Source: Christensenellaceae bacterium (GTDB lineage Bacteria; Bacillota; Clostridia; Christensenellales; Borkfalkiaceae). Taken from it: a DNA stretch of 64,000 nucleotides. Position 1 is the stretch's first letter; the number at the start of each line of letters is the position of its first letter. Of the stretch, positions 7,860 to 59,033 are shown one piece after another. The notes under the pieces are model-generated. The model was given only the letters and a program-made list of their open reading frames with translations. It ran no database searches and was not told where the DNA came from. The position numbers and the translations under genes are program-made. The stretch is taken from contig JAZLBD010000001.1 of NCBI GenBank assembly GCA_045613545.1, positions 27,332 through 91,331 of the forward strand, given 5' to 3'.

Positions 7860-8089
7860 AAGTATTTCTCCGTTAACGATATAAGACTTGACAGGGTTTG
7901 TAAATTTTCCGGTTGCAAATCGTCGTCCAAAAACGCTACGCTGAAGGCTTCTTCTATGGATACGACAAGCGTAACCAACGATAAACTATCCACGCCGCTT
8001 TCCATTAAAGGCTCGTCTTCTTCTAAATACGCGCCTATCGTTTCTTCTGCTATCTTTACGATTTTTTCTTTGATTTCTTCTCTATTCAC
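7856..8089 (-). CDS. acyl/peptidyl carrier protein (first copy)
   Basis: 77 aa with motif ESGVDSLSLVTLVVSIEEAF. GTG start at 8089 preceded by AGGAG at 9 nt. Confidence 0.75.
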   Translation of the reverse strand: MNREEIKEKIVKIAEETIGAYLEEDEPLMESGVDSLSLVTLVVSIEEAFSVAFLDDDLQPENLQTLSSLISLTEKYL

Positions 8090-8909
8090 CTTTTAACGCT
8101 CCTGAAATTTTTCGTTCAATATCAATGATATAAACGATTTTTTGATACAAATCGCTATAAGCTTTGACCTTATCCACTTCTTCCTTTTTGATTTCTTTCA
8201 ATCTTCGAAGGTGTACGTCAAAATAAATTTTATCCATATAAGTGATTTCTTCACGCAATAGCGCTTTCACTTTCGCATTTACGCTATAATATTGCTCCAA
8301 ACGTTTTCTGGATACTCTCAAAACGCCAATCGCCGATTCCAACGCACCTAGGCTATTCGGCAATTCTTGTACGTCAAAATCTTGCATCGTATATTGCAAC
8401 GTCGCATAATCAGGCAAAGTCATCGTTCTATCTTCCATCCTGTAAATGCAAACGGCGCCGTCGTATACTTCCATAAACCTTTCTTCGGTAAAAGTCCCCT
8501 CAGAAAGTGGATATTGATTAATCCATTCCAAATTTCGATTTACGCAAATATAGTGGTCTTCACGCCAAGAAGAGCGCTTATAGTCCGTAAAAAAGGCGGT
8601 ATTTACGCGAATTAAATACAAATCGTCATCCGCTTGGTTTCTCAACAGTTCTAACGCCTCTTTAGCGGAACAAGCACGATATTCGTGTCTTACTACACCG
8701 TATTCTTCCGCAATATCTTGCAATCTCGGTAAATAGCAATAGTTTTGATACATAGCCCCGTGTGAAAAATCATCAAACGCTTGTTTCAAACTGATAAATG
8801 AATTTCCGTATAAATTAGAAACATCGTAATATCGATTTAACCAAGCGAGAAAATAACTCTCCACACAAGACAACGCCAACGCTTCGGATATTTCTTTTTT
8901 ATTAATCAT
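8082..8909 (-). CDS. divergent BtrH-like Cys/His protein (second paralogue-like member)
   Basis: N-terminal Cys in ALSCVESYFLAWL, later LYLIRVNTAFFTDYKRSSWREDHYICVNRN, and a helical C-terminal half like the 313-aa neighbour. The similarity is weaker, so confidence is lower. Confidence 0.35.
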   Translation of the reverse strand: MINKKEISEALALSCVESYFLAWLNRYYDVSNLYGNSFISLKQAFDDFSHGAMYQNYCYLPRLQDIAEEYGVVRHEYRACSAKEALELLRNQADDDLYLIRVNTAFFTDYKRSSWREDHYICVNRNLEWINQYPLSEGTFTEERFMEVYDGAVCIYRMEDRTMTLPDYATLQYTMQDFDVQELPNSLGALESAIGVLRVSRKRLEQYYSVNAKVKALLREEITYMDKIYFDVHLRRLKEIKKEEVDKVKAYSDLYQKIVYIIDIERKISGALKGE

Positions 8910-41179: not shown

Positions 41180-43282
41180 TTATTTTTTCTTTTGTTTAAG
41201 CGACTGTAAAATATACTCCGCGCCCTTTTCCGCCGCATTGCCGGGGTTGAAGATCATGGCGCTTTGTTTTTCCGTGATAATTTGCTTGTATTCTTCCGAC
41301 TTTTCTTCCAGCTCTTTGAGGGTCGTTGCAAGGTTTGCGATTTCCTCTTTGTCGATGGCTACGCCGATCTCCGAACGCAAAGAAATTTCCACGGGCAACG
41401 TACTGATTTTCGTGTAGTTGGGGTTGGGGCATTTCATAAGGGTGTTGACGAACACCGCGGGGCGCTTGGTCGCAAAGCAGAACTCGGTAGCCACCCCCGA
41501 CCAGTCGGTGATTAAAACGTCCGACGAATAAATGGATTTATTCGTTGCGAAATTGAGTTCAAAGCGAAGCTTGTCCTCGTCGTAACCTTGGTAGCGATCG
41601 ACAATTTGTTGCATCGCCGCGCCGTAGCGTTTCACATATTCGGGATGCGGGCGAACGATGATTTTATAATCGGTGGGCATAAGCGCCGAGATTAAATCGT
41701 CCACGCAAGAATCGAGTAAATTATCCTCTTGCCAAGAGGGAGCAATCAGTACCTCTTTGGGATCGGTCGGCTTTTTATCCTTATTTGCCTTTTCGCCGTC
41801 AACGACGAGGGAATCCGCCAAAGGATACCCGAATTCTACGAGGGTCTTTTTCTTAAGTTTGTAAACTTTCTCGATTTCTCGAAGTTCGCCTACCGTGTGC
41901 GGACCGGTGCAGAAAATCGTGTCGAACGCGTCGAACGCGCCCTCTCTAAATCCCATATGCGCACTCATCATATCGTGCGGGATATAGATATACTCCGTGT
42001 CCTTTTTCATCATCGAACGCTTCAAATAATATTTGTCGAGGTCGGGCGTGGTCATTATAAAAATGTCCGTTTCCACCATCATCATCAAAATCGGCGTTTT
42101 CTTCAAAGAGATATAATAGGGTTTAATCTTCGGTTGCTCCTTTGCAATCTCGAAAATGACGTCGTCGGGATCGTTCGTCACGTAGTGAATGGATAAGTTC
42201 GAACGTTTCAAAAGTTGTTCGATGAGCGCTTTGTAATATTTATAAAATCCGCTCTTTTCCGAATAGATCACGACGTGTTTATTGACGATGTTTTTGAACC
42301 GTTTATAGTCCTCTTTTTCCCGTTGTTTATTCGCTTTATATTGCTCGCTGTTTTTATCCTCTTTGCCGAACTCTTTCATGTCGGCAAGCGCTTTTCGGCT
42401 CGCTTCGAGCGCCTCGTAATCCACGTATTTTTTCGGATTGATCGCCATGTTCAAAAGGTACATTTGCGCCACCGAGAAAAGGTTGCTCGCAATCCAATAA
42501 AGGGCGATCCCCGCAGGCACGAACAAGCCAAGATAGAGAGACAGCGCCACGGAAAGGGTCATAATCCCGTATTTGTTGAGTTTGCCTTGTTCCGATTGAA
42601 TGACGTTGGAAAGGTTTTGCGTAAAGCACATTACCCAAGACGAAAGCCCTGCAAGAATGGGAACGATAACGTATATCCCCCAAGCGAGGCTCGGCACTTC
42701 ACTCAAATTAAGTCCGAGGAAGTTGAGTTTGAATCCGTCCACCCTTTCGATAAGCGCCGTGAGAGATTCTATTTCCATACCTGTCGCAGATGCAAGCTCG
42801 GGCGTTGCGGTAAGCGTGCCGTTTTGCATCGCTTCGACGATGGCAAGTTGGAAAGAAGAATCGCTCGTATTCGCACCGATCGCTTCCGCCAGTTTCAAAA
42901 TAGCCGTCTCGTCGCACCCGAACAAATAGGTAAGAGGGTGGTAGATAATAAACACCACGCCAAGCAATAAAACGATTTGGAGCACGAGCGGAATGAGGGT
43001 TAAAATCGGATGATAATGCTCCCGTTTGAACAGTTTCATTTGCTCGTCGGCGATCATATCCGCGTTCCCTTGATATTTCACCTTCAAGTTATTGATTTCC
43101 GGTTGCAATTTGACCATTTGAATGGAATTTTTCTGTATCCACACCGACACGGGAAGAAGCACGATCTTCGTCGCCAGCGTGAACAAAATAATGGCGAGCC
43201 CATAGTTCTCCACGAGCATCCAGCACCATTTCATCAAATACCCAAGCGGTATGCAAATGTAATAAACGATTGTGTCCATCAT
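41180..43282 (-). CDS. fusion: YidC/Oxa1-type membrane insertase (N-terminal) plus CDP-glycerol glycerophosphotransferase TagB/TagF-like domain (C-terminal)
   Basis: The N-terminus ENYGLAIILFTLATKIVLLPVSVWIQKNSIQMVKLQPEINNLKVKY is a YidC signature. The C-terminal ~400 aa, with ...SDVLITDWSGVATEFCFATKRPAVFVN, is typical of Glyphos_transf. Confidence 0.7.
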   Translation of the reverse strand: MMDTIVYYICIPLGYLMKWCWMLVENYGLAIILFTLATKIVLLPVSVWIQKNSIQMVKLQPEINNLKVKYQGNADMIADEQMKLFKREHYHPILTLIPLVLQIVLLLGVVFIIYHPLTYLFGCDETAILKLAEAIGANTSDSSFQLAIVEAMQNGTLTATPELASATGMEIESLTALIERVDGFKLNFLGLNLSEVPSLAWGIYVIVPILAGLSSWVMCFTQNLSNVIQSEQGKLNKYGIMTLSVALSLYLGLFVPAGIALYWIASNLFSVAQMYLLNMAINPKKYVDYEALEASRKALADMKEFGKEDKNSEQYKANKQREKEDYKRFKNIVNKHVVIYSEKSGFYKYYKALIEQLLKRSNLSIHYVTNDPDDVIFEIAKEQPKIKPYYISLKKTPILMMMVETDIFIMTTPDLDKYYLKRSMMKKDTEYIYIPHDMMSAHMGFREGAFDAFDTIFCTGPHTVGELREIEKVYKLKKKTLVEFGYPLADSLVVDGEKANKDKKPTDPKEVLIAPSWQEDNLLDSCVDDLISALMPTDYKIIVRPHPEYVKRYGAAMQQIVDRYQGYDEDKLRFELNFATNKSIYSSDVLITDWSGVATEFCFATKRPAVFVNTLMKCPNPNYTKISTLPVEISLRSEIGVAIDKEEIANLATTLKELEEKSEEYKQIITEKQSAMIFNPGNAAEKGAEYILQSLKQKKK

Positions 43283-43314: not shown

Positions 43315-45135
43315 TTAGTTAGCAAATAAGGGGTGGTTAAAGTATTCTCTTTTTACCACCGACCAATGATCGAAATCTCTCGCAGAGCCGATAATTTCGT
43401 AGGTGATCGAAGTGTATGCGCTCATATTGAGCTTTCTACAGTTCCAAATAAACTTGCGCTTAAATGCATCCCAAAGCGAGGGATCCATTCGTTCGATCGT
43501 AAACACCGAAGGCGCAAAAGCGGTCGTATCGTAAGAAATCCCCTCCGATTCGAAAATCGTAGGCCATAAATTTTCGTGGGAAACGGGCGCGGAGGAAAAT
43601 TTAAGTTCTCCGCTATCCACCCCGCTCGGCTTGACGAACATGGAAGTGAGCATACTTCTATCGAATTCCGAGAAAATATTCTTCACTTTTCCGTGATCGC
43701 CTAAAATCACGATCGTCGCGTTCTTGTAAGCTTCGGGCGATTGTCGTTTCATTCCCTCCAAATAGGAGGCGATAAGCTCCATACTGTTTCTCGCCGAAAG
43801 GACGAAATTATTCTTTTCTTTCTTGCTTTTTTTGAAGTTTTTATCGAGTCCTGCCGCGTGGCAACCGTTCAAATGAATGAAGGAAAAGTTCTTTTCCCCC
43901 TGCATAGAAAACTCGTTTACCTTTTCTTGGAATTGGCGATACACTTTATCCGTATCGTAATTATATTCCACGTAGTCGCCTAAATCGTTACTATGGTATC
44001 TTGCATACGAATTGCAAACGTTCGCGTCAACGTTCCCCGAAATCCCTTTCAGGGCGTAGGGAAGAGTGCGATACAGTGACATCAACGTAAGATTCCTCGA
44101 AAGTCCCCAAGGCTTGCGATAGGACACCCAAAGGGAATCGCGCTCAGCCTCGATAGAATTTTCGATATAATCGGGCAATTCCCGCCCGTCGCGGTAGTCG
44201 TAGTAATACTCGGCGAAGAGGTTGATTTTATACCCCTCCTCGTGCAATCTTTCGATCGTTTGATTGTCGTTATACACCTTAGCAAGCCACTCATCGCCGT
44301 CGCCGTTGTCGTATTCCGTGTTTGTGAGGAAATATGCGACGGACGGGAAGGTGTTGCCATAGAGGGAAATCGCGTCTTCGTAATAGGTAAATCCTTCGAA
44401 TTTCGCAAACGTTTCGGGATATTTTTGCATCGCGGGCTCGGTATAGAATTTCCCATCCATTTTATCCACGCAAAAAACGATGACGTTTTTATCTTCCGCA
44501 AAGCTCGTTAAATTTTTATTCGTCAAAAACCGCGGATTGCCAAGTTCGTCGCCCTCAAATTTCCGATCGATCGGCGATGCGAACACCCCATCCGTCGTCA
44601 TGGCGAGCACGCCGAAACTCAACGCTTGCGGAACGGCGAGCGTGAACGTTAAAATGAGCGCGATCGTCTTGGTTAAATCGTGTTTTTTGAAGTATTTATA
44701 CAGAAAGACGACGCCCCCTAAGACGATTACCCAAACCGCCGTATTCCAAACGTACGTCCACGCGGAAAATCCGTCTGCCGTATCGCCGTTGAGCGTTTCC
44801 AAACCGCCGTTTAAGTAGTTGGATTGTACGAACGTCATTAAGAAACTGCCAAGCAATATCGGATAGAGGATCTCATACACGCACCTTGGCAAGAAGAACA
44901 ACAGGCAAAAGGTCAACGCGACGAATATCAACGCCGAATAAAACTGATAGGGTAAAAACGCGCCTGCCGAAAAGTAAAACTCTTTTACGTTGCTAGCAAA
45001 AATCTCGAACGGTGCGACGAAAAACACCATGAACGGAAAAAAGAGCGAAAGAGCCGCGCTCGGTAAAATTCGCTTTTTTCTTTCTTCGCTAAAAAATTTC
45101 TTTTTCGTCTTTTGTTGTATCTTTTTTTCTTTCAT
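43315..45135 (-). CDS. LtaS-like sulfatase-family phosphoglycerol transferase, polytopic N-terminus (paralogue 1)
   Basis: Multi-TM N-terminus, then NVIVFCVDKMDG and ILGDHG. High similarity to the adjacent ORF. Confidence 0.65.
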   Translation of the reverse strand: MKEKKIQQKTKKKFFSEERKKRILPSAALSLFFPFMVFFVAPFEIFASNVKEFYFSAGAFLPYQFYSALIFVALTFCLLFFLPRCVYEILYPILLGSFLMTFVQSNYLNGGLETLNGDTADGFSAWTYVWNTAVWVIVLGGVVFLYKYFKKHDLTKTIALILTFTLAVPQALSFGVLAMTTDGVFASPIDRKFEGDELGNPRFLTNKNLTSFAEDKNVIVFCVDKMDGKFYTEPAMQKYPETFAKFEGFTYYEDAISLYGNTFPSVAYFLTNTEYDNGDGDEWLAKVYNDNQTIERLHEEGYKINLFAEYYYDYRDGRELPDYIENSIEAERDSLWVSYRKPWGLSRNLTLMSLYRTLPYALKGISGNVDANVCNSYARYHSNDLGDYVEYNYDTDKVYRQFQEKVNEFSMQGEKNFSFIHLNGCHAAGLDKNFKKSKKEKNNFVLSARNSMELIASYLEGMKRQSPEAYKNATIVILGDHGKVKNIFSEFDRSMLTSMFVKPSGVDSGELKFSSAPVSHENLWPTIFESEGISYDTTAFAPSVFTIERMDPSLWDAFKRKFIWNCRKLNMSAYTSITYEIIGSARDFDHWSVVKREYFNHPLFAN

Positions 45136-45171: not shown

Positions 45172-47001
45172 TTATTCGGCAAGCCCTTGCGCGAACAAGG
45201 CGTGATTGATTTTTACGCGACCGACCTCCCTCCAGTTTTTCCACACTCTCGCTTCGCCCACGATCTCGTAGGTGATCGAATAGTACGACGCGATGTTCGG
45301 CGTTCTCATATTCCAAATAAACCGACGAGGAGGACAAGGAAAACCTTTTTCGTAAGCCTCTTGCACGGCGAAAATCGACTGCGCCCAAGCCTCGTTTTCA
45401 TACGCGATTCCCTCGCTCTCAAAAATCGTCGCCCACAAATTGTCGTGGGAAACGGGCGCTTTGGATTTTTTAAGTGGCGTTCCGCTCTCCCCGCTACGCT
45501 TTACGAACAAGGAAGTAAGCATACTGTCCTTGATCTCTTTCGAATGGTTTTTGATTTTTCCGTGATCGCCTAAAATAATAATGGTAGCGTCCTTATAAAG
45601 CTCGGGAGAAATCGCTTTCATACTTTCCAAGTACGAGGCGATAATTTCCATACTGTTTCTCGCCGAAAGGACATAGTCCTTTTTGTGTTTTTTGCTCGTT
45701 TCGAAATTCTCGTCGAGCCCTGCCGTGTGGCAACCTGCCATATGAATGAACGTGAAATTTTTCTCGCCCGTGGTGGAAAATTCGTTTTGTTTTGCCTTGA
45801 TTTGTTTATAAATTCCTTTCGTGTCCGCTTTGAATTCGCTATACCCTTGCAAGTCGTCGCTCACGTATTGGGCGTAGGCGTTGCAAGTTGCCGAATCAAT
45901 ATTGCCTGCTAAATTTTTCAAAGCGAAAGGCAAGGTTCGATAGAGCGCCATCTGCATCATGGAACGGTTAAACTTTTGAGGATTTTTAATCACGAGTTTC
46001 AAGGACTCCCTACTCGTTTCCACGGCGTTGTCGATATAGTCTGGCATTTGCCGAGCGTCGTAATAATCGTAGTAGTATTCCGCGAACAGATTGATATCGT
46101 ATCCGTTTTCGTGAAGAACGGACAAGGTCGAGTTTTGGTTGTAAACTTTATCGAACCAGTCCTTGTGGTTTTTGTTGTCGTATTCAATTTGCGACAGCAT
46201 ATACCCAATGGCGGGGAAGGTGTTCCCATAGAGAGAGGTTGCGTCCTCGTAGTAGGTAAACCCGTCGAATTTATCGAACGTTTCCGGATACGTTTGCATA
46301 GCCGGTTCGGTGTAGAGTTTTCCGTCCATTCGATCGACGCAAAACACAATCACGTTGCGCGAAGAGCCAACCGTCGTCAAATTTTTGTTGGTGATAAAGC
46401 GAGGCTCGCCGAAATCGTCGCCGTCGAATTTCCGATCGATCGCCGAGCCGAACGCGTCTTCCGTCGTCATCGCAAGCACTGAAAAATTGATCGCTTGTGG
46501 CATCGACAAGGTAATGGTTAAGATGAGGGCGATCGTTTTGGTTAGCTCTTTCTTTTTGAAAACTTGAAAGAGAAAAACGAACAAGGCGATTCCGATCACC
46601 CAAACCGCCGTATTCCAAACGTACGTTCCCGCCGAGAAATCTTTCATATCGTCCCCACCCAGCGAATCGAGTCCGATATTCAGATAATTCGATTGCAAGA
46701 AGAACATAAAAAATACCCCTAAAAAGAAGGGATATACGAAATGGTAAACTTTCTCCGGAATTAAGAAAAGCAAAAGAAACGAGAGCGCGGAAAAGATAAA
46801 GGCTATTCCCAATGTGAAAAACACGAAATCGGTAGCGGAAAAATAAAACTCCCCGATATTATTACAGAAAATTTCAAAAGGAGCAACGACGAACAACATA
46901 ACGTTCAAAAATACAACGAGAAGAACGCTCGGAAAAATACGGGAGCGTCGCTCCGCATTGAAGTACGTTTTTTTGGTTGCTTGCTCTTTCTTGTTCGTCA
47001 T
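45172..47001 (-). CDS. LtaS-like sulfatase-family phosphoglycerol transferase (paralogue 2)
   Basis: NVIVFCVDRMDG, ILGDHG, collinear with 43315-45135. Confidence 0.65.
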   Translation of the reverse strand: MTNKKEQATKKTYFNAERRSRIFPSVLLVVFLNVMLFVVAPFEIFCNNIGEFYFSATDFVFFTLGIAFIFSALSFLLLFLIPEKVYHFVYPFFLGVFFMFFLQSNYLNIGLDSLGGDDMKDFSAGTYVWNTAVWVIGIALFVFLFQVFKKKELTKTIALILTITLSMPQAINFSVLAMTTEDAFGSAIDRKFDGDDFGEPRFITNKNLTTVGSSRNVIVFCVDRMDGKLYTEPAMQTYPETFDKFDGFTYYEDATSLYGNTFPAIGYMLSQIEYDNKNHKDWFDKVYNQNSTLSVLHENGYDINLFAEYYYDYYDARQMPDYIDNAVETSRESLKLVIKNPQKFNRSMMQMALYRTLPFALKNLAGNIDSATCNAYAQYVSDDLQGYSEFKADTKGIYKQIKAKQNEFSTTGEKNFTFIHMAGCHTAGLDENFETSKKHKKDYVLSARNSMEIIASYLESMKAISPELYKDATIIILGDHGKIKNHSKEIKDSMLTSLFVKRSGESGTPLKKSKAPVSHDNLWATIFESEGIAYENEAWAQSIFAVQEAYEKGFPCPPRRFIWNMRTPNIASYYSITYEIVGEARVWKNWREVGRVKINHALFAQGLAE

Positions 47002-50382: not shown

Positions 50383-50497
50383 ATTTTTACTCCTTACTTA
50401 CGTTAATTACTTAGTAGTATAGCACTTCAAAAAAAGAATGTCAAGCCTATGAAAAAGATTCTTTAAGAAACCACAAAAAAGAGCCCCTTTCAACGAC

Positions 50498-50530
50498 AAA
50501 AACGGCTTGTCGCTCAGACAAGCCGTTTTT
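50498..50530 (-). terminator. native ppdK terminator, now separated from ppdK by the islet
   Basis: Stem acggcttgtc (50502-50511) / gacaagccgt (50517-50526), extended by A:T pairs. Its right arm lies inside the left direct repeat. Confidence 0.65.
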
Positions 50531-50572
50531 TGTTAGGCTAAATTAGTTTCTAGGATTTTTAATATTCGCTTG
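50516..50572. repeat. left direct repeat (att-like): last 9 codons plus stop of ppdK and 27 nt downstream
   Basis: agacaagccgttttttgttaggctaaattagtttctaggatttttaatattcgcttg. Identical to 53878-53935 except for one T in the T-run. Confidence 0.9.
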
Positions 50573-50908
50573 AAGAGATGTGTATAGTGAAAAGTTGGTC
50601 GTGTATATTTATACCCTTTTTCGAGCGTTTTGTTTGTCTTATACATACATGTTGCATATTTTGTCGAATTATGTATATTTATACAAAATGCGGTAGCTGT
50701 AGGTTTTTGGTGGTTTTTCACCCAATTTTTCGTAGCTGGTCTTGACAGTCCTTGGTATTTTGAAAGTGCGTTAATCCCTTATAAAACCTAACTTTTTCAG
50801 CATTTTTCAAGTGCTTTTTATTGCTAGCCTTAACAACACCCACAATCACCGCAAGTCTTACTATTTTTAAGGTTCTAAAAACGCCCTTATTTTTAGTTCT
50901 CATCAACG

Positions 50909-51060
50909 CCTAAAACGTTGATTTTCTTTTTCTTGAGCAAGAACACGTACGCCACGAGAGATACGATTGCATCAAACGCATTGCCGATGCCGAATAACAA
51001 CGCTATGCCGATAAGCGTAGGTTGCCAAGCCCGTAGAACGTGGAATCGAACACGTTTTGG
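50909..51060. repeat. 152-bp direct repeat, copy A
   Basis: 151/152 identical to 52935-53086 by hand alignment (a/c difference in ...cgagAgatac...). Confidence 0.9.
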
Positions 51061-51171
51061 AACGCGTAAAGCATAATGAACACCCATTCAAAATAATACA
51101 GATAGCCGACGGAAAAAATCCCGACGGCTATCTAAAAAGTGAGGTGAAACAACAATGTTAATACTTAATTT

Positions 51172-51927
51172 TTATTCTATTTCCAAAAACGGTTTCAATT
51201 TCCATAATTGTCCGTAAACAAGTTTCCTTGCATTTGCTCCATCAAAAGGCGTTACCACCCCGATTTCTTCAAGCCCTTCAATAATTTCCCCTGCTTTGTT
51301 ATAACCCATCTCCATACGACGTTGGATCATTGAAATTGACGCACTATTCGTTGCCATAATTAACTTACAGAGATATGTAACGCTTTCTTTTATCGCCTCG
51401 TTTTCCGCTAAATAGTTAGACAACTTCGCGCCATCTTCATTATCTACGATAACCGATTTTGCAATTTGGAAAAATTCTTTATATTTTTCTATCGAGCAAT
51501 CTCTTTGTTTCGGGCTTTTAGGCAAATCCGCACGTGCCACGTACCACTTACCATCGTTTCCTATTTCCAGCTTCTCTTTAATTTCTTCAATTTCTTCTTC
51601 TACCCTTTCTACTTCCTGCTCCCATTCTTCATAGGCTTCTTCGTCATCTTCGTCGGGTTCTTCACATTCGAGTTCTTCCACCCTTTCTTCAAGCTCTTTC
51701 AACTCTTTTAATAACGCTTCTATATTCGCCGTATTCTGTTCTTCAAAAAACGAGTTGATATCACAATTATAAAATTTTGCGATTTTCGGCAAATATTCCA
51801 ATGATGGTAACGCCTCGCCTTTTTCCCATTTTGATACGGACTGCGGACTTATATTCAAATAATCCGCCAAATCCTTTTGCGTTTTCTCACTCTGTAATCT
51901 TATTGCTTTTAATCTTTCGTGAAACAT
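51172..51927 (-). CDS. XRE-family HTH protein with an acidic coiled-coil linker and a C-terminal FtsK-gamma winged-helix domain
   Basis: N-terminus LKAIRLQSEKTQKDLADYLNISPQSVSKWEKGEALPS (HTH_3). C-terminus SASISMIQRRMEMGYNKAGEIIEGLEEIGVVTPFDGANARKLV; compare the SpoIIIE/FtsK gamma pattern ASxSxLQRRxRIGYxRAARLIDxMExxGVVxPxxGSKPREVL. GGAGG lies before ATG 51927. Confidence 0.75.
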   Translation of the reverse strand: MFHERLKAIRLQSEKTQKDLADYLNISPQSVSKWEKGEALPSLEYLPKIAKFYNCDINSFFEEQNTANIEALLKELKELEERVEELECEEPDEDDEEAYEEWEQEVERVEEEIEEIKEKLEIGNDGKWYVARADLPKSPKQRDCSIEKYKEFFQIAKSVIVDNEDGAKLSNYLAENEAIKESVTYLCKLIMATNSASISMIQRRMEMGYNKAGEIIEGLEEIGVVTPFDGANARKLVYGQLWKLKPFLEIE

Positions 51928-51963
51928 ACTATACCTCCGATTTTTTCCATTGTAAATATTGTA

Positions 51964-52473
51964 TTATATCCGTAAAATGGACGCTTTTTCATAAACAACC
52001 TTTAATGTTCCTGCAAACGGTATTACTATTCCCAGAGCTTTAATCCCTTCAATAATACAATTCGCCAAGTCAAAATCAATTCTTAATTCCACCTTTAATA
52101 AACCAAGAGAAACCAAACTATTCTCTATCAAAAATTGATAAATGCTCACCAGCATTTCTTTAATATTTTGATTGTTTTCCAAATAAAAACTTAATTCTTG
52201 AATATCTTTTTTTTGGTCAACAACGTCTTTTGCTAATTGAAAAAAAGCATCTAACATATCTACGCTTATATTTTCCGAGCTTTCTTTCTCAAAAAATATA
52301 TTCATATCACAATTATAGAACTTTGCGATTTTAGGTAAATATTCCAATGATGGCAAAACCTCGCCTTTCTCCCATTTTGATACGGACTGCGGACTTATAT
52401 TCAAATAATCCGCCAAATCCTTTTGCGTTTTCTCACTCTTTAATCTTATTGCCTTTAATTGTTCGTGGATCAT
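51964..52473 (-). CDS. XRE-family HTH protein, paralogue with a degenerate gamma-like C-terminus
   Basis: The first ~60 aa are almost identical to the 51172-51927 product. The C-terminus NSLVSLGLLKVELRIDFDLANCIIEGIKALGIVIPFAGTLKVV is collinear with the gamma domain but has lost the QRR/GY residues. Confidence 0.7.
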   Translation of the reverse strand: MIHEQLKAIRLKSEKTQKDLADYLNISPQSVSKWEKGEVLPSLEYLPKIAKFYNCDMNIFFEKESSENISVDMLDAFFQLAKDVVDQKKDIQELSFYLENNQNIKEMLVSIYQFLIENSLVSLGLLKVELRIDFDLANCIIEGIKALGIVIPFAGTLKVVYEKASILRI

Positions 52474-52934
52474 ACCACACCTCCGCGTTTTTCATTGTAA
52501 ATATTATACCATATCCACAAAACGCCGTCAATGACCGATTATTTGAGTTTTACCACTCACAAATCAACCACAGGTTGATTTCCCTTACGGGAGTGGGATA
52601 GCAAACGAAAAAACCATAAACCCATTTGCTACCCCACAAAGAGGTGTAAACGCAAACGACATACTATAAACAACTTTATTTATTCCCGTTCATTAGGAAT
52701 TTGAAAAAATAGAACACCAACAATATGGGAAACAATAACCACATAGCGTATCTCCTTGCAACTTATTTACAATGGAATTATAACATAGAAAATATGACAA
52801 CATCCGTCAGGTTTATAAAAATTTTTGAAAATTTTTATTCCCCCATTATATTCAAAACAAAAATCTTTACTCTATAAATCACTTTGAACTGAAAAGTAAA
52901 GATTTTTGTTGTCGTATAAAGTTTTTATTCAATC

Positions 52935-53086
52935 CCTAAAACGTTGATTTTCTTTTTCTTGAGCAAGAACACGTACGCCACGAGCGATACGATTGCATCA
53001 AACGCATTGCCGATGCCGAATAACAACGCTATGCCGATAAGCGTAGGTTGCCAAGCCCGTAGAACGTGGAATCGAACACGTTTTGG
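52935..53086. repeat. 152-bp direct repeat, copy B
   Basis: See copy A. Start-to-start distance is 2026 bp. Confidence 0.9.
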
Positions 53087-53162
53087 GACATCTGACCTCT
53101 TTTGTAAAAATATTTAATTTTTCGCTCGGCTTATCTATAGCATATTCATAAATTGGGATTTG

Positions 53163-53723
53163 TCAATATCTACTGCCATAAATCAATTTCGCTTTTTCAG
53201 TATATTTCCGTACAAACTCGGTCTTTGCGTTTGTATAAGCATCTCTGTTATGCTCGTACTTTTTCCATAAATTTAATTTCAATACTTCGTATTGTTTTGC
53301 TACATCCGAATGTTCTATTAGATAATCCCTAAAATACAATTCATTGTTATCGCCAGCATATCTTAAGTGCAAATGAAACACTCGTTTGGCAAATCCATTC
53401 TCAGTATATCCTTTATTAAAGGACAACCCGTTCTCACTTTGCGACATACAAATATAACCGCAATTTATTATCTCCGCTTTGTAATCAAGCAAATTTGTCC
53501 CCTTTGGAATCTCCACAAGAATATCTACAATAGGTTTTGCCCAAATAGAAGGAATAACGGTGCTTCCGATATGACTGATTCTCTCATTGTTCGTTAAAAC
53601 TCTTTTCAATAGTTTTTCTTCTTCCAAATACCATTCTTTCCAACACTCTTGATGTTCTGTTAAAATGATAGGAAACAACTGCCACAGTTCTTCTAAACTC
53701 ATTTCGGTTAATTTTTTGCTCAT
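53163..53723 (-). CDS. GrpB-family (nucleotidyltransferase-fold) protein
   Basis: IGSTVIPSIWAKPIVDILVEI, FHLHLRY and the C-terminal AYTNAKTEFV are typical of GrpB/UPF0157. I prefer ATG 53723 (GGAG 7 nt upstream). Confidence 0.7.
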   Translation of the reverse strand: MSKKLTEMSLEELWQLFPIILTEHQECWKEWYLEEEKLLKRVLTNNERISHIGSTVIPSIWAKPIVDILVEIPKGTNLLDYKAEIINCGYICMSQSENGLSFNKGYTENGFAKRVFHLHLRYAGDNNELYFRDYLIEHSDVAKQYEVLKLNLWKKYEHNRDAYTNAKTEFVRKYTEKAKLIYGSRY

Positions 53724-53877
53724 TATACACTCCGTCAAATTCTTATTTATCGGTGAGTTTATTATAACATAAAATAAAATTTAATTCAATTTGTTTTGCG
53801 TGGGCAAAAGAAAACTCGACTTTTCCAAGTCGAGTTTTATAAATTATTCAATTTAAATCCCTAAGAGTGACGCCCTT

Positions 53878-53935
53878 AGACAAGCCGTTTTTTTGTTAGG
53901 CTAAATTAGTTTCTAGGATTTTTAATATTCGCTTG
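53878..53935. repeat. right direct repeat (att-like), functional 3' end of ppdK
   Basis: See the left repeat. Confidence 0.9.
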
Positions 53936-56539
53936 TGCTGCTGCAAGGCGTGCGATGGGCACGCGGAACGGCGAGCAAGATACGTAATCCAAACCGATTT
54001 CGTGGCAGAATTCTACCGACGTAGGATCACCGCCGTGTTCACCGCAAATACCTACGTGGAGGTGGTTGTTTGCAGGTCTACCAAGCGAGATTGCCATCTT
54101 CATCAATTTGCCAACGCCCGTTTGGTCAAGTTTTGCGAACGGATCGTTTTCGAAGATCTTCGTGTCGTAGTAAGCGTTCAAGAACTTACCAGCGTCGTCA
54201 CGAGAGAACCCGTACGTCATTTGCGTCAAGTCGTTCGTACCGAAGCAGAAGAAGTCAGCGTTTTGCGCGATTTCGTCAGCCGTCAAGCAAGCTCTGGGGA
54301 TTTCGATCATCGTACCAACTTCATAATCAAGTTTCACGCCAGCCGCTTTAATTTCAGCTTCTGCCGTTGCAACCACTACTGCTTTGACGAACTTCAATTC
54401 TTTCACGTCGCCAACGAGCGGGATCATGATTTCGGGTTTCACGTTCCAATCAGCGTGCGCTTTTTGAACGTTGATAGCCGCGCGGATAACGGCAGCCGTT
54501 TGCATCTTCGCGATTTCGGGATACGTCACGGCAAGACGGCAACCACGGTGACCCATCATCGGGTTGAATTCGTGCAAGGAGGAAATGATCGCTTTGATCG
54601 TTTCCACGCTCTTGCCTTGCGCGTTTGCAAGAATTGCGATATCTTCTTCCGTCGTAGGAACGAATTCGTGAAGAGGGGGATCGAGGAAACGGATACATAC
54701 GGGCGTGCCTTCCAATGCTTCGTAAAGCGCTTCGAAGTCAGCTTGTTGCATAGGAAGAATCTTTTGAAGAGCGACTTCTCTTTCTTCCACCGTTTCGGAG
54801 CAAATCATTTCGCGGAACGCATCGATTCTGCCTTCGCCGAAGAACATATGCTCGGTACGGCAAAGACCGATACCTTCTGCGCCGAGTTCGCGCGCTTTCT
54901 TAGCGTCCGTAGGCGTATCAGCGTTCGTTCTTACTTTAAGCTTTCTATATTTATCAGCCCAACCCATGATCACGCCGAAGTTACCGGAAATTTCTGCGTC
55001 AACGGTGGGAATGATACCGTCGTAAATAGCGCCCGTCGAACCGTCGATGGAGATGTAGTCGCCTTCGTGGAATACTTTTCCTGCAAGCGTGAACTTCTTG
55101 TTTTCTTCGTCCATCTTGATTTCACCGCAACCGGATACGCAACACTTACCCATACCGCGAGCAACAACGGCTGCGTGGGAGGTCATACCGCCACGAACGG
55201 TGAGGATACCTTGCGCCGCTTTCATACCCGTAATGTCTTCGGGGGAGGTTTCCAAACGAACGAGGACTACTTTCTTTCCTGCGTTGTTCCAATTTTCAGC
55301 GTCTTCTGCCGAGAACACGATTTGACCGCAAGCCGCACCGGGGGACGCGCCAAGACCACGACCCATAGGCGTTGCAGCCTTGATGGCTTTCACGTCGAAT
55401 TGAGGGTGCAAAAGAGTGTCGAGGTTTCTGGGATCGATCATAAGCACTGCTTCTTGTTCCGTCTTGTGTCCTTCTTTTACGAGGTCCACTGCGATTTGAA
55501 GAGCTGCTTGCGCCGTTCTCTTACCGTTACGGGTTTGCAACATATAGAGTTTCTCGTTTTCCACGGTGAATTCCATATCTTGCATATCGTGATAGTGATT
55601 TTCAAGGATTTCGCAAACTTTCTTGAATTGCTCGAAAGCTGCGGGGAATTTTTCCGCCATTTGCGCGATGGGCATCGGCGTACGAACACCTGCAACCACG
55701 TCTTCGCCTTGCGCGTTCGTCAAGAATTCGCCCATAAGTTTCTTTTCTCCCGTAGCAGGGTCACGCGTGAACGCAACGCCCGTACCGCAATCGTCACCCA
55801 TATTACCGAATGCCATTGCTTGTACGTTTACTGCCGTACCCCAAGAATAGGGAATATCGTTATCACGGCGATATACGTTTGCACGAGGGTTGTCCCAAGA
55901 ACGGAACACGGCCTTTACGGCGCCCATAAGTTGTTCTTTCGGGTCGGAAGGGAAATCCTTACCGATCTTTGCTTTGTATTCTGCTTTGAATTGGTTAGCA
56001 AGTTCCTTCAAATCGTCCGCTGTCAGGTCAACGTCGAGGGTCACGCCTTTTGCTTCCTTCATTTCGTCGATGAGTTCTTCAAAATATTTCTTACCAACTT
56101 CCATAACGACGTCGGAATACATTTGAATGAATCTTCTATAACAGTCGTAAGCCCAACGAGGGTTGCCCGACTTCTTTGCGATGGTTTCCACAACGTCTTC
56201 GTTCAAGCCGAGGTTCAAGATGGTGTCCATCATACCGGGCATGGACGCTCTTGCGCCCGAACGAACGGAAACGAGCAAAGGATTTTCCAAATCGCCGAAC
56301 TTCTTGCCAGTGACTGCTTCCATTTTGTCAACGTAGCTCATAATCTCTGCTTGAATGTCGGGATTAATTTGCTTTCCGTCCTCATAATACTGCGTGCAAG
56401 CTTCCGTCGAAATGGTAAAACCTTGAGGCACGGGAAGACCGATCTTCGTCATTTCCGCAAGGTTCGCGCCCTTACCGCCGAGCAATTCACGCATGTTTGC
56501 ATCGCCTTCTGTGAAAAGGTAGCAATACTTCTTTGCCAT
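53906..56539 (-). CDS. ppdK: pyruvate, phosphate dikinase
   Basis: MAKKYCYLFTEGDANMRELLGGKGANLAEM, GGMTSHAAVVARGMG (phospho-His), and GICGEHGGDP near the C-terminus. ATG 56539 follows GGAGG. Confidence 0.95.
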   Translation of the reverse strand: MAKKYCYLFTEGDANMRELLGGKGANLAEMTKIGLPVPQGFTISTEACTQYYEDGKQINPDIQAEIMSYVDKMEAVTGKKFGDLENPLLVSVRSGARASMPGMMDTILNLGLNEDVVETIAKKSGNPRWAYDCYRRFIQMYSDVVMEVGKKYFEELIDEMKEAKGVTLDVDLTADDLKELANQFKAEYKAKIGKDFPSDPKEQLMGAVKAVFRSWDNPRANVYRRDNDIPYSWGTAVNVQAMAFGNMGDDCGTGVAFTRDPATGEKKLMGEFLTNAQGEDVVAGVRTPMPIAQMAEKFPAAFEQFKKVCEILENHYHDMQDMEFTVENEKLYMLQTRNGKRTAQAALQIAVDLVKEGHKTEQEAVLMIDPRNLDTLLHPQFDVKAIKAATPMGRGLGASPGAACGQIVFSAEDAENWNNAGKKVVLVRLETSPEDITGMKAAQGILTVRGGMTSHAAVVARGMGKCCVSGCGEIKMDEENKKFTLAGKVFHEGDYISIDGSTGAIYDGIIPTVDAEISGNFGVIMGWADKYRKLKVRTNADTPTDAKKARELGAEGIGLCRTEHMFFGEGRIDAFREMICSETVEEREVALQKILPMQQADFEALYEALEGTPVCIRFLDPPLHEFVPTTEEDIAILANAQGKSVETIKAIISSLHEFNPMMGHRGCRLAVTYPEIAKMQTAAVIRAAINVQKAHADWNVKPEIMIPLVGDVKELKFVKAVVVATAEAEIKAAGVKLDYEVGTMIEIPRACLTADEIAQNADFFCFGTNDLTQMTYGFSRDDAGKFLNAYYDTKIFENDPFAKLDQTGVGKLMKMAISLGRPANNHLHVGICGEHGGDPTSVEFCHEIGLDYVSCSPFRVPIARLAAAQANIKNPRN

Positions 56540-56729: not shown

Positions 56730-57128
56730 TTATTCCGTTGTATTTTCACGAAAAACCACGAACCGTTGGAAGAGATATTCCGTGGAAAAGTTCAAAAGCA
56801 TATTGATACCCGTCACCAAATACTCGTTCCAACCCAAGTCCCCCACCAAGAAATTCCCTAAAAGGGTGGAAAGGGGGATAAACGCCAAATAATACCCGAG
56901 CACTTTCAGCATCGCGATCGGCACGTTCGTCGCCGATTGGAAAGTGAATTTCCGATTGAGGGTAAAATTCCACACCACCGAAAGAGTGAGAGATATCAAA
57001 TAGCACGGCCAATAGGACATTCCCGAAAGCTCGTTCAGTAGGGTAAACGATACGATTTGTATACCCCCTGCGCTGATGGAAAACAGTACGAATTTAATGA
57101 TTTTTATCCATTCTTTTTTATTCTTCAT
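56730..57128 (-). CDS. GtrA-family membrane protein
   Basis: IIKFVLFSISAGGIQIVSFTLLNE and NRKFTF, 4 TM segments. ATG 57128 follows AGGAG. Confidence 0.7.
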   Translation of the reverse strand: MKNKKEWIKIIKFVLFSISAGGIQIVSFTLLNELSGMSYWPCYLISLTLSVVWNFTLNRKFTFQSATNVPIAMLKVLGYYLAFIPLSTLLGNFLVGDLGWNEYLVTGINMLLNFSTEYLFQRFVVFRENTTE

Positions 57129-57142
57129 TCGTAGAAAACTCC

Positions 57143-58309
57143 TTAAAAAAGCTCGAAAAACGCCTTTTCTCCCGAAAGCAGTTTTTCGTCGAGTTGCCAC
57201 TTCCCGTCCTTAAAAAGCAAACCGAACTGACTCTCTTTCGCCGTTTCAAACACGTCGTCGCAATCGTACGCGACGAATTCGTCATTCATATCTTGCAAAA
57301 TCTCTTTTACCGCTTCGTGGAAATGACTCGTCGTGATAAAAATCCCTCGACATTTGCTTTTCCCGTCGCGCACTTTTCGCCACTGTACCGCGCCGACGAA
57401 CTGTTGAAAGTCGGTGAGTTTTACCTTCCATTTGTCTCCGCCTTTCGTGTCATCCCAGTTTTTTGCCTGTATGTAGATGACCTCGTAAAAACCGAATTTA
57501 TCGCAAAGTTCCAATTCGCCGTCGATCCCCCCGTCGTTTTCTCCGCCGGAGATACGAAACGCTTCCACCCTTCTACCATTTTTGAAAGCATGACGTTCGA
57601 GCAAATATACCGAATAGTATTCAAAATATTTTCCCCCAAGCGAGCGCAAACGTTTCAAAAACGCCTCTTTTAGAAGTTCTTCTTCCGTCTTTTTCCCTTT
57701 TGCCGTTTTGACGGCGCGGGGTTTCGTTTCCTTTTTGACCGTTTTCTTCCCCTCTTTTACCGGTTTTTCCTCTTTCTTTTCCTCTTTTTCTTCCGTCGGT
57801 TTTTCTTTGGATTCTTCCTGTTTTTTTGCGTTGCCTAAGAATACGACGTCGCCTAAATCCACTTCCTTTTTTTCTGCGACGGGGCGTTTTTTCGTTTCTT
57901 TCTTCTCCTCGACGGACGGTTTCTCGACTTGTTTATCCTTTGCCGATTTTTTAGCCGTCTTTACGGACGGTTTGTCCGTTTTTTCGACGAGTTTTTCCGC
58001 GGTCGAAAGAGTCTCTTTCTTCTTGCGACCGCGTTTTTTCTCTTTTTCCGCCGTCCATTTGCAAAGATCGCTCGGCTTGTCGTAGGCGACTTCTCCCGCC
58101 TTTTCCATTTCCGAAAACACCGACCCGAATTTTCCCTTAATATCGGCGATATCGTGCTCTTCGCCCTCGTACGCCGAAACGTAGGCGTTGGTCGAAACCA
58201 TCAACAGATCGTTCCATTTATACTCTTTTTCTCTGAGTAGGTCGCGCAAAATCGTTTTGAAACGCTCCACCTTTTCTCTTTTCGTAGGTCTTTTCTCTTC
58301 TTGTGCCAT
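57143..58309 (-). CDS. Mrr-like restriction-endonuclease-fold protein with a long Lys/Glu-rich linker
   Basis: C-terminal GGENDGGIDGELELCDKFGFYEVIYIQAKNW (D...(D/E)xK, Mrr_cat-like). The middle ~130 aa are K/E/T-rich low complexity. The start lies 1 nt after the recO stop. Confidence 0.6.
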   Translation of the reverse strand: MAQEEKRPTKREKVERFKTILRDLLREKEYKWNDLLMVSTNAYVSAYEGEEHDIADIKGKFGSVFSEMEKAGEVAYDKPSDLCKWTAEKEKKRGRKKKETLSTAEKLVEKTDKPSVKTAKKSAKDKQVEKPSVEEKKETKKRPVAEKKEVDLGDVVFLGNAKKQEESKEKPTEEKEEKKEEKPVKEGKKTVKKETKPRAVKTAKGKKTEEELLKEAFLKRLRSLGGKYFEYYSVYLLERHAFKNGRRVEAFRISGGENDGGIDGELELCDKFGFYEVIYIQAKNWDDTKGGDKWKVKLTDFQQFVGAVQWRKVRDGKSKCRGIFITTSHFHEAVKEILQDMNDEFVAYDCDDVFETAKESQFGLLFKDGKWQLDEKLLSGEKAFFELF

Positions 58310-58310
58310 A

Positions 58311-59033
58311 TTAGTCCTCGATTAAGCGAATGAGTTCGCTCAAACAGGGGTATTCCCCCTCCGTTTTTTCTTTGATATATTCTTTCATGAGCCGAAGCGC
58401 TCTCTTTTTTCCCCGCTCACTCTTTTCTTCGTCGTGGGAAAGCCCTTGACAGCGCTTGAGCCACTCGTAGGTGCTTTCGCTGGCACGCACGCCACGGGCG
58501 CACGAAGGACAGGTAAACTGACCCGTTGAAAAGTCGAAATAGGGCGTTTCCCCCACTTCGCCTCCACAATCCGCACAACCGCTCGCGTCGAGCATATATC
58601 CACCCTCTCGCAAAGCGACGAGCAAAAAGGTCGTCACGGTCTCCACGGGGTCCTCCTCGGTAAGCGTGAGCGCTTTCAAGGCCTCGATCGCGGCGATAAA
58701 AAATCCCTCTTGTCCCTCATCGTAGATGACGAGCGCGTCGCAAACTTCCGCGATCACGCACGCAGAATAATAGCGCACGACGTCCGTTCGAAGCGCGTAA
58801 AACCCGTCGTATAAATAGGCGCTGACAACGGTATTGCGCCCGCCTTTTTCCGCCAGCACGTATTCGCAAAAAGCAAAGGGTTGCGAAGCAAAGTTGAGCT
58901 TTGCCGTCGGTTTTTTCACCCCTTTCATAAAAGCGGTCACCTTCCCCCTCGACGGGGTGAGCAAGGTGACTATTTTATCATTTTCTTGATAGTGCGTGGT
59001 TCGAATGACCAGCCCTTCCGTTTTGCTTTCCAA
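58311..59033 (-). CDS. recO: DNA repair protein RecO
   Basis: EGLVIRTTHYQENDKIVTLLTPSRGKV OB-fold N-terminus and the Zn-finger CADCGG...FTCPSC. TTG start. Confidence 0.85.
   Translation of the reverse strand: MESKTEGLVIRTTHYQENDKIVTLLTPSRGKVTAFMKGVKKPTAKLNFASQPFAFCEYVLAEKGGRNTVVSAYLYDGFYALRTDVVRYYSACVIAEVCDALVIYDEGQEGFFIAAIEALKALTLTEEDPVETVTTFLLVALREGGYMLDASGCADCGGEVGETPYFDFSTGQFTCPSCARGVRASESTYEWLKRCQGLSHDEEKSERGKKRALRLMKEYIKEKTEGEYPCLSELIRLIED

Follow-up and report, generated by a model that had tools for sequence, protein, structure and literature searches.

How does an islet that carries no recombinase gene come to lie between two copies of the end of a housekeeping gene? The question is raised by a 64,000-nt stretch of DNA from a Christensenellaceae bacterium (assembly GCA_045613545.1, contig JAZLBD010000001.1, positions 27,332 to 91,331; the whole stretch is called the window here). 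In the window the 3' end of ppdK is present twice, on either side of an insert of ~3.3 kb (islet ~3.4 kb). We consider it probable, at about three chances in four, that the insert (50573-53877) is what deletions have left of an integrative mobilizable element (IME), without its recombinase.

The end of ppdK is duplicated around the insert

The target gene ppdK lies on the minus strand (53906-56539, stop codon 53906-53908; Pfam PEP-utilizers_C, PPDK_N and PEP-utilizers). The junction repeats, both assigned to the same strand, have the sequence AGACAAGCCGTTTTTT(T)GTTAGGCTAAATTAGTTTCTAGGATTTTTAATATTCGCTTG, with a proximal copy of 58 nt and seven T at 53878-53935 and a distal copy of 57 nt and six T at 50516-50572. 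The length of the T run is the sole difference between them. The proximal copy holds the ppdK tail in use, nine codons (QANIKNPRN) and the stop, together with 28 nt of downstream sequence. The distal copy holds the displaced, orphan last 30 nt of ppdK and 27 nt of the native 3' untranslated region (UTR). A repeat search of the window returned a 47-nt perfect core within the two copies, and a 41-mer of the repeat has exactly two sites in the 64 kb with up to three mismatches allowed, where shuffled sequences lead one to expect none. A preliminary description of this DNA had reported direct repeats of 57/58 bp that duplicate the ppdK end, and its positions and lengths were exact.

It had also placed an orphaned native terminator beside the left repeat, and direct folding recovered a strong U-tailed hairpin there (50496-50533, minus strand; -22.9 kcal/mol, z = -6.0, 0 of 200 shuffles folding as well). 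The orphaned terminator overlaps the distal repeat, so that the left copy runs into the hairpin; the copy proximal to ppdK retains just half of the native stem. Downstream of ppdK its place is taken by an element-borne terminator that now serves the gene (53811-53838, minus strand; -19.2 kcal/mol, z = -5.8). Terminators were assessed by folding throughout, the native hairpin having been missed by a terminator-pattern scan.

The boundary of the insertion is the Gln codon at which the conserved ...ARLAAA|Q passes into the variable C-terminal tail of ppdK (QANIKNPRN). This position is common to all members of the family described below and to the unrelated islets of three other loci (L017, L065 and L068; L numbers designate the fetched loci and contigs). 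The GC content of the interior is 31-39%, against 45-54% in the flanks, and the interior is AT-rich as first described.

The insert holds cargo genes and a deletion scar

All genes of the interior are on the minus strand, as is ppdK. A six-frame Pfam scan of 50400-54000 (E<=1) found HTH_3, FtsK_gamma and GrpB domains only and no tyrosine or serine recombinase or transposase domain; one non-significant HTH_Tnp_1 match (E 0.039) falls on the XRE helix-turn-helix (HTH). The window likewise gave no tblastn match to the family recombinases (the 597-aa protein and the 540-aa protein of L119, see below) or to the relaxase of L107, and no tRNA, tmRNA or Rfam family was found in or near the islet. Regular-expression screens for recombinase motifs proved insensitive, having missed the integrase of L085, and Pfam and tblastn were relied on instead. 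Two statements of the preliminary description, that GrpB and two XRE-type proteins are encoded inside and that no recombinase or transposase is, were borne out by these scans, including the recombinase-profile check that it had proposed.

The GrpB-family gene, taken as cargo, lies at 53163-53738 (minus strand; PF04229, 2e-43) behind a promoter-like site at 53761-53789. GrpB was seen in no other fetched family member, and among the fetched loci its sole similarity was to a GrpB gene of L015 (~60% at the amino acid level) that is located elsewhere in that locus. The first XRE gene, XRE1 (51172-51927, minus strand), is intact and has a GGAGG ribosome-binding site. Its product joins an HTH_3 domain (1e-16) to a C-terminal FtsK_gamma winged helix (4e-16); it matches the FtsK-gamma structure 2j5o in the PDB (2e-7), and the XerD-FtsK-gamma fusion 5dcf is also among the matches. 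A terminator hairpin follows the gene (51099-51134, minus strand; -23.9 kcal/mol, z = -7.5). Its paralogue XRE2 (51964-52473, minus strand; HTH_3 2e-16) is 86% identical to XRE1 in the 5' part; its divergent C-terminus resembles FtsK-gamma below the threshold. The promoter-like site of XRE2 (52503-52531) is the best consensus match in the scanned region.

Two internal repeats had escaped the preliminary description. One, of 227 nt, spans the 5' parts of both XRE genes. The other is a 161-nt direct repeat (50903-51063 and 52929-53089, 98% identical) that brackets the XRE pair. A T-arm-like string in the 161-nt repeat was rejected as a candidate feature, being MatE-like coding sequence. Copy A of this MatE-like 3' stub (50890-51080, minus strand) includes the repeat at 50903-51063 and was matched in tblastn by residues 353-445 of the MatE-like protein of L107 at 85-86%. 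Copy B lies at 52928-53089 on the same strand. The window thus retains the last ~53 codons of the MatE-like gene, twice, and the remainder of that gene is gone, together with everything that lies upstream of it in full-length relatives. We take the missing gene body beyond the stub as a deletion scar; with such a leftover of the family's MatE-like gene inside it, the islet clearly arose by deletion.

No exact match was found to the sequences of ppdK, GrpB or XRE1, nor to a 34-mer of the junction repeat in metagenome or viral contig collections. A blastn search of the islet against phages and plasmids returned trivial matches only.

The far-end arm stops at the same ppdK codon in other hosts

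Next to the distal repeat lies a conserved non-coding arm of ~290 nt (50573-50864, minus strand), which matches the ends of L095, L098 and L099-L106 at 88-93% identity. Positions 50542-51017 of the window match L095 at 90% and 50550-50864 match L098 at 93%; the homology reaches into the distal repeat. An arm motif recovered eight further contigs and brought the members with this arm type to 11, namely the window and ten contigs from metagenomes or metagenome-assembled genomes (MAGs). Ten of the 11 have an arm ending ...CACTATACACAyyCCTT, with CAR GCN AAY... directly after it; these codons open an orphan ppdK tail at the same Gln codon. The exception is L105, where the arm abuts another sequence. 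The orphan tail is CAAGCGAACATCAAGAACCCCAGAAATTAA in L095 (QANIKNPRN and a stop) and CAAACTAATATTCGTAATCCTAGGGGCTAA in L098 (QTNIRNPRG and a stop). Homology stops at the junction, and the orphan tails beyond it are host-specific and use different codons. Mean pairwise identity is 89% for the arms vs 68% for the adjacent tails, and this arm type adjoins at least 10 different host tails.

We read the arm as a putative cis-acting DNA site and a candidate recombination site. The near-palindrome GTATAAATATAC has only two copies in the window, at 50603-50614 and 50673-50684, and both fall in the arm. A small open reading frame (ORF) was considered here and rejected; frameshifting indels among the members break every frame. 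A structured RNA was also considered. RNAalifold gave no covariation support for one (one compensatory pair, positive covariation term), and there was no Rfam match to the arm.

Larger elements at the same site, which the preliminary description had suggested looking for, do exist. L095 (>10 kb) and L099 (>8.7 kb) have the islet's far end and both abut an orphan ppdK tail, and four larger elements of a sister subfamily (L107, L114, L116 and L120) are described in the following section. In L099, positions 4270-4438 (minus strand) resemble the Rfam family Vibrio RNA AS7, below threshold (61.6 bits, gathering score 90, E = 1e-9); the match is antisense in a coenzyme A-disulfide-reductase-like gene and is probably conserved coding sequence.

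The 4-kb contig L105 holds a complete member of the family with both junctions. It shows a ppdK 3' end followed by a 35-nt repeat, a 2.4-kb family member, a further remnant, the second repeat copy and the native terminator. The family member consists of the 70-aa gene, the peroxiredoxin gene Bcp, a truncated gene, a gene for a NERD protein and the arm. No recombinase was found in L105. A stretch of it that had been considered a C-terminal fragment of a serine recombinase was dropped, having neither Pfam support nor a tblastn match to the family recombinases.

A sister subfamily carries a large serine recombinase

Bcp, the most widespread core gene of the family, was used as an anchor and led to L107-L120. 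The sister subfamily shares the core of 70-aa gene, Bcp and MatE-like gene at 85-92% nucleotide identity. Its arm ends ...CACTCA(T/A)TCATA and abuts the same Gln codon (CAR), with at least 8 different orphan tails. Ahead of the core, L107, L114, L116 and L120 have a NikA-like gene, a PF03432 relaxase gene and a gene for a 597-aa protein with Resolvase and Recombinase domains; a weak TnpV match was seen in L107 only. The best PDB match of the 597-aa protein is the recombinase of a C. difficile conjugative transposon (3g13, 7e-32), and SprA of SPbeta comes next. A defence-like module (Z1, DUF6339, DUF4420, a PLD-helicase with DUF3427, and Vsr) takes this position before the core in L112, L113, L115 and L117.

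The exchange of one module for the other is sharply delimited. When L107 (1-9032) is compared with L112/L113 (1-13611), the cores are 99.5% identical through the 70-aa gene, Bcp, an HTH gene, a 328-aa gene, the MatE-like gene and the arm, and the switch point between mobility and defence modules falls within the last ~40 nt of the recombinase gene. At the other end, L107 and L112 are 99.55% identical over 4.2 kb to the junction base and then pass into different tails (QANIKNPRK and QANIKNPRA, each with a stop) and different flanks. This near-identity up to the junction, with different sequence beyond it, is direct evidence that one site in different hosts has recently received the element by transfer.

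L119 has a further recombinase gene, a paralogue with 69% identity, whose start lies ~200 nt past an orphan tail with its terminator, where one would expect the first gene of a resident element whose junction took a second integrant. The 597-aa gene of L119 is itself interrupted by an element encoding a 540-aa serine recombinase (Zn_ribbon_recom, DUF4368), and its N-terminus is truncated. From its sequence, L119 (1338-4595 and 9004-9681) appears to be a case of tandem and nested accretion at the ppdK site.

The XRE-FtsK-gamma cassette is a secondary acquisition

XRE1 is conserved elsewhere far better than the host's own genes. Its homologues at 96% amino acid (94% nucleotide) identity lie in L085-type elements, which carry a Phage_int_SAM_3/Phage_int_M tyrosine integrase, PcfJ and a restriction/defence module; positions 52262-52851 of the window match L085 9623-10214 at 92%. 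The shared part is a discrete unit of ~1.2 kb, made up of a promoter, the XRE-HTH/FtsK-gamma gene and a terminator, at 87-94% nucleotide identity. Copies were located in the window (51102-52851), L085 (9623-10827), L095 (8529-9732), L098 (2028-2829) and L121 (735-1490). They occupy at least three unrelated contexts: beside PcfJ in tyrosine-integrase elements, within the MatE-like 3' end, and downstream of an IS21-like HTH fragment. The unit is nested in the MatE-like 3' end in L095 as well as in the window, flanked by a duplication of that end (261 nt in L095, 161 nt in the window); L095 has the full MatE-like gene at 7408-8532. The two MatE stubs of the window carry an identical internal deletion, which suggests that they have evolved in concert.

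Because the cassette is nested in the MatE-like 3' end and is found in several contexts, we regard it as acquired secondarily and not as the key to the islet's arrival. L099, L105 and L107 are without the XRE-FtsK-gamma gene, as are most family members. The combination of HTH_3 with FtsK_gamma is rare (~17 of the 120 clusters listed), and four related proteins (P0163, P0170, P0171 and P0183) fuse the same HTH to an FtsK/SpoIIIE ATPase domain.

Empty sites and unrelated islets at the same codon

The preliminary description had proposed a search for an empty ppdK site in relatives, and several were found. From the Gln codon onward the flank of L098 matches the 3' region of ppdK, uninterrupted in both cases, in L005 (92% over 428 nt) and in L009 (87%); these matches identify L005 and L009 as empty sites in related species. 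L040 and L072 are empty sites relative to L068. The closest ppdK to that of the window, in the Christensenellaceae MAG L001, is 92% identical at the amino acid level and has the same QANIKNPRN tail, with a terminator directly after the stop and no insert. An empty site within the same species was not found, because the window's species is a singleton in the databases. The next-best homologue of the neighbouring M13 peptidase (the window's own copy aside) is 76% identical, and M13-ppdK synteny is not kept. The preliminary description had undertaken to give way if all relatives carried the same arrangement with diverged repeats or if a recombinase gene lay inside the insert; neither was observed.

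A wider survey took in 80 ppdK loci fetched from other Clostridia. In 3 of them (L017, L065 and L068, from Lachnospiraceae- or Eubacterium-type MAGs) islets of 2.3-3.6 kb start from the same Gln codon, at 10594-13042 in L017, 10594-14061 in L065 and 10594-14272 in L068. They share no sequence with the family of the window. Their repeats are diverged (73-91% over 106-136 nt) and span tail, UTR and terminator. Their cargo includes ToxN in L017, a methyltransferase in L065, and an Mrr-like nuclease and a RelA/SpoT-like protein in L068. A scan of these three islets, confined to their larger ORFs and not made in six frames, found no recombinase domain. The distal copy in L068 is native, matching the empty sites L040 and L072, and the proximal copy is 73% like the distal one; this is accounted for by a replacement tail borne by the element. 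The start of the ppdK tail seems, on these sequences, to be a general docking site. Nothing relevant to ppdK as an integration site was found in the searched literature.

A probable reduced IME and its alternatives

Taken together, the observations fit the following course of events. Elements of the family would insert site-specifically in ppdK of Christensenellales-like Clostridia, always at the Gln codon that starts the tail. The incoming element would supply ppdK with a tail and a terminator, and the native tail and terminator would be displaced to the far end of the element. The copy in the window would since have lost the recombinase/relaxase/NikA-like module and most of the cargo of its full-length sisters. 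It would have kept both junction repeats, the ~290-bp arm, the MatE-like stub, a duplicated XRE-FtsK-gamma cassette and GrpB, with GrpB replacing the stretch from the MatE stub to the proximal junction.

The preliminary description had seen in the repeats the classic attL/attR signature of site-specific integration. Integration stands; the relatives, however, point to a large serine recombinase and not to a tyrosine integrase. A large serine recombinase is absent from the window and present in L107, L114, L116, L119 and L120, and no tyrosine integrase was found in the window or in any element ending at the ppdK junction. We infer that a serine recombinase made the ppdK junctions. The crossover, with a 2-bp core, would lie at the CA of the Gln codon, which is invariant at every junction; the repeats themselves run to 35-57 nt, a copy of the tail being duplicated.

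Cis-mobilizable elements (CIMEs) are decayed IMEs or integrative and conjugative elements (ICEs) that retain attL and attR; this definition and the accretion model are those of PMC5704250. By its sequence the islet would fall under this definition. It is flanked by attL/attR-type repeats, with the same junction codon and host-specific tails in >20 contigs and with empty-site relatives. Pfam and tblastn found no genes for integration, excision or transfer, and decay from a larger element is indicated by the arm and the MatE-like stub, which are homologous to L095, L099 and the recombinase-bearing L107. The islet is accordingly incapable of its own excision or transfer, and any movement would depend on a cognate recombinase supplied from elsewhere. 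No relaxase was found in the window; the arm contains palindromes and may hold an oriT. The islet may still be mobilisable in trans, and tandem structures were seen in the relatives L105 and L119. The earlier suggestion of a decayed or trans-dependent cis-mobilisable element gains support from the missing recombinase, the larger elements at the same site and the empty sites of relatives.

A number of observations weigh against this reading. The recombinase assignment comes from the sister subfamily, in which the last ~150 nt of the arm differ, and no recombinase was seen in any of the 11 members that have the window's arm type. The adjacency of the recombinase-bearing members to ppdK is read from orphan tails, the proximal junction lying >10 kb from the anchor gene. 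No inverted-repeat symmetry is apparent by eye around the putative CA crossover, and IMEs with serine recombinases have been described with very short repeats (PMC5704250), where here there are 57 nt. The two repeat copies of the window are identical even over 27 nt of species-specific 3' UTR, and an imported tail should differ. The copies in L105 are likewise identical; those in L017, L065 and L068 are 73-91% identical. A conspecific donor or gene conversion could be called upon for this identity. The three genes of the islet are also intact, with good promoters and ribosome-binding sites, and "decayed" fits the mobility functions and not the cargo.

On an alternative reading the islet would be no dead relic. 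It would belong to a successful non-autonomous lineage carrying cargo or defence genes, stripped down to the cis-acting arm and the junctions and regularly excised, passed on and re-integrated by the serine recombinase and relaxase of the sister IMEs, much as miniature inverted-repeat transposable elements relate to transposons, or pseudo-SCC to staphylococcal cassette chromosome (SCC) elements. We hold this possible, with a modest chance of being correct. The recombinase is missing from view in 11 of 11 arm-type members (end to end in the window, and as far as the arm in L105), the arm is far better conserved than the neutral tails and sits beside many of them, and the cargo genes are intact. 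But most members are on short contigs and a recombinase may lie off-contig, conservation of the arm could reflect a promoter or operator function, and no circular junction or tandem intermediate was seen for the window's arm type, nor is a co-resident recombinase known in the window's genome. A broader proposal is somewhat more doubtful. In it the islet of the window and its 10 arm-sharing relatives would form a non-autonomous lineage that passes from species to species on the borrowed recombinase and relaxase of sister IMEs, with the arm and its two copies of GTATAAATATAC as the sole requirement in cis; the Gln codon would be a dock across Clostridia for unrelated recombinase-less islets, some of them with defence- or toxin-type genes; and the host-matched repeats would hint at a tail copied from the host, beyond simple conservative recombination.

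Long identity blocks at gene 3' ends are typical of tyrosine integrases, and a 57-nt block that regenerates the end of ppdK could be the mark of such an origin, the more so as the closest XRE1 homologues sit in L085-type tyrosine-integrase elements. The XRE cassette is nested and secondary, however, and the recombinases found in elements that end at this junction are all serine recombinases. The integrase-side end of L085 abuts an FAD-oxidoreductase gene with no ppdK tail to be seen, and L085 has no arm; we judge a tyrosine-integrase remnant unlikely. It is very unlikely that no site-specific event took place and that the repeat arose by duplication in place, by homologous insertion of the Campbell type or through misassembly at a repeat of k-mer size. 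The source is a metagenomic contig of a singleton species, and a local duplication or single crossover would give copies identical down to the host-specific 3' UTR. Yet the same codon boundary recurs in >20 independent contigs with different tails and in three unrelated islets, the far end is homologous to the elements of other hosts up to the junction base, and an assembler cannot invent a second repeat copy together with a foreign arm. Barely credible, to our mind, is a dependence on host XerCD/XerS, activated by the FtsK-gamma proteins at dif-like sites in the repeats. FtsK-gamma is the domain that activates XerD, the domain in XRE1 is bona fide, and the missing integrase would be explained. 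But the repeats agree with the B. subtilis dif sequence at 17/28 positions at best and with its XerD arm at 6/11, a score no better than that of 19 other sites in the window; the target is a coding 3' end and not the dif of the terminus, the repeats are of 57 nt and not 28, and most family members are without the XRE-FtsK-gamma gene.

Other features around ppdK

Two additional genes separate recO (58311-59033) from ppdK in the window, one for a lysine-rich, restriction-endonuclease-like protein with Mrr_cat (57143-58309) and one for a membrane protein of the GtrA family (56730-57200), and their ORFs overlap. In L001, the closest relative, recO directly precedes ppdK. The 5' side of the window's ppdK may, to go by this comparison, also have received an insertion.

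Immediately downstream of the empty ppdK site, Christensenellaceae MAGs (L005/L009 10812-15119, L098 1744-1959 and L103 3521-4072) encode a truncated HTH protein (HTH_23/HTH_7) that looks like the N-terminus of an IS21-like transposase; only the HTH match was tested. It is followed by an AbiEi/AbiEii-like gene pair and in L009 also by type I restriction-modification genes, these names coming from reading the sequences. Elsewhere in the window, 43315-45135 and 45172-47001 are adjacent paralogous ORFs of ~606-609 aa with no Pfam match at E<=1e-5, and a YidC-like/glycerophosphotransferase fusion protein (41180-43282) adjoins the pair.

Significance and comparison with known systems

These results define a precise integration hot spot in gut Clostridia, the codon with which the variable C-terminal tail of ppdK begins. 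The site appears to be used by a family of IMEs that encode a large serine recombinase and a relaxase and that occur as near-identical copies in different hosts. Within the family defence modules can replace the mobility module, and there are many derivatives without a recombinase. An orphan ppdK tail downstream of ppdK is a simple marker for delimiting islands in the little-studied genomes of Christensenellales and Lachnospiraceae. The 597-aa protein is a candidate for a site-specific serine recombinase whose natural attB is defined, and the family provides a natural setting in which to study how non-autonomous islets are maintained and dispersed.

Xer-exploiting integrative elements (IMEX) include CTX-phi, TLC-phi with XafT, and the gonococcal genetic island. 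The islet is like them in having no integrase and in encoding a small protein with an FtsK-gamma domain, known to activate XerD. It differs in that its repeats have no dif-like site, its target is not dif, and the FtsK-gamma protein is missing from most of the family.

Tn4451/Tn4453 are clostridial mobilizable transposons with the large serine recombinase TnpX, TnpV and a Mob protein (PMC5704250). The sister elements L107, L114, L116 and L120 resemble them in pairing a large serine recombinase with a relaxase, in the weak TnpV match of L107 and in belonging to Clostridia. In contrast to Tn4451, which has low target specificity, 2-bp repeats and a relaxase reported as MobV, the ppdK family has one precise codon, a replacement gene end (repeats of 35-57 nt) and a PF03432 relaxase with a NikA-like partner. 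The window copy differs further in being without recombinase, TnpV, relaxase and NikA-like genes.

In staphylococci, SCC and pseudo-SCC elements lie at the 3' end of rlmH (orfX) and use the large serine recombinases CcrAB/CcrC. Here the likeness extends to the 3' end of a housekeeping gene, to repeats that include its last codons, to recombinase-less derivatives and tandem composites, and to a hot spot for cargo and defence genes. Host phylum, target gene and recombinase lineage are different, and SCC repeats are of ~15-18 bp.

The CIMEs of the ICESt1/ICESt3 family sit at the 3' end of fda in Streptococcus thermophilus. Like them, the islet lies between attL/attR-type repeats where a housekeeping gene related to glycolysis ends, no longer has genes for recombination or transfer, is derived by deletion and has relatives that show accretion (L105 and L119). 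Unlike them, its parent family seems to rely on a large serine recombinase and not on a tyrosine integrase, the parent would be a relaxase-only IME and not an ICE, and mobilisation in cis or in trans is putative here. The family and its target site were not found described in the searched literature; the islet itself is a known kind of object, an ordinary relic.

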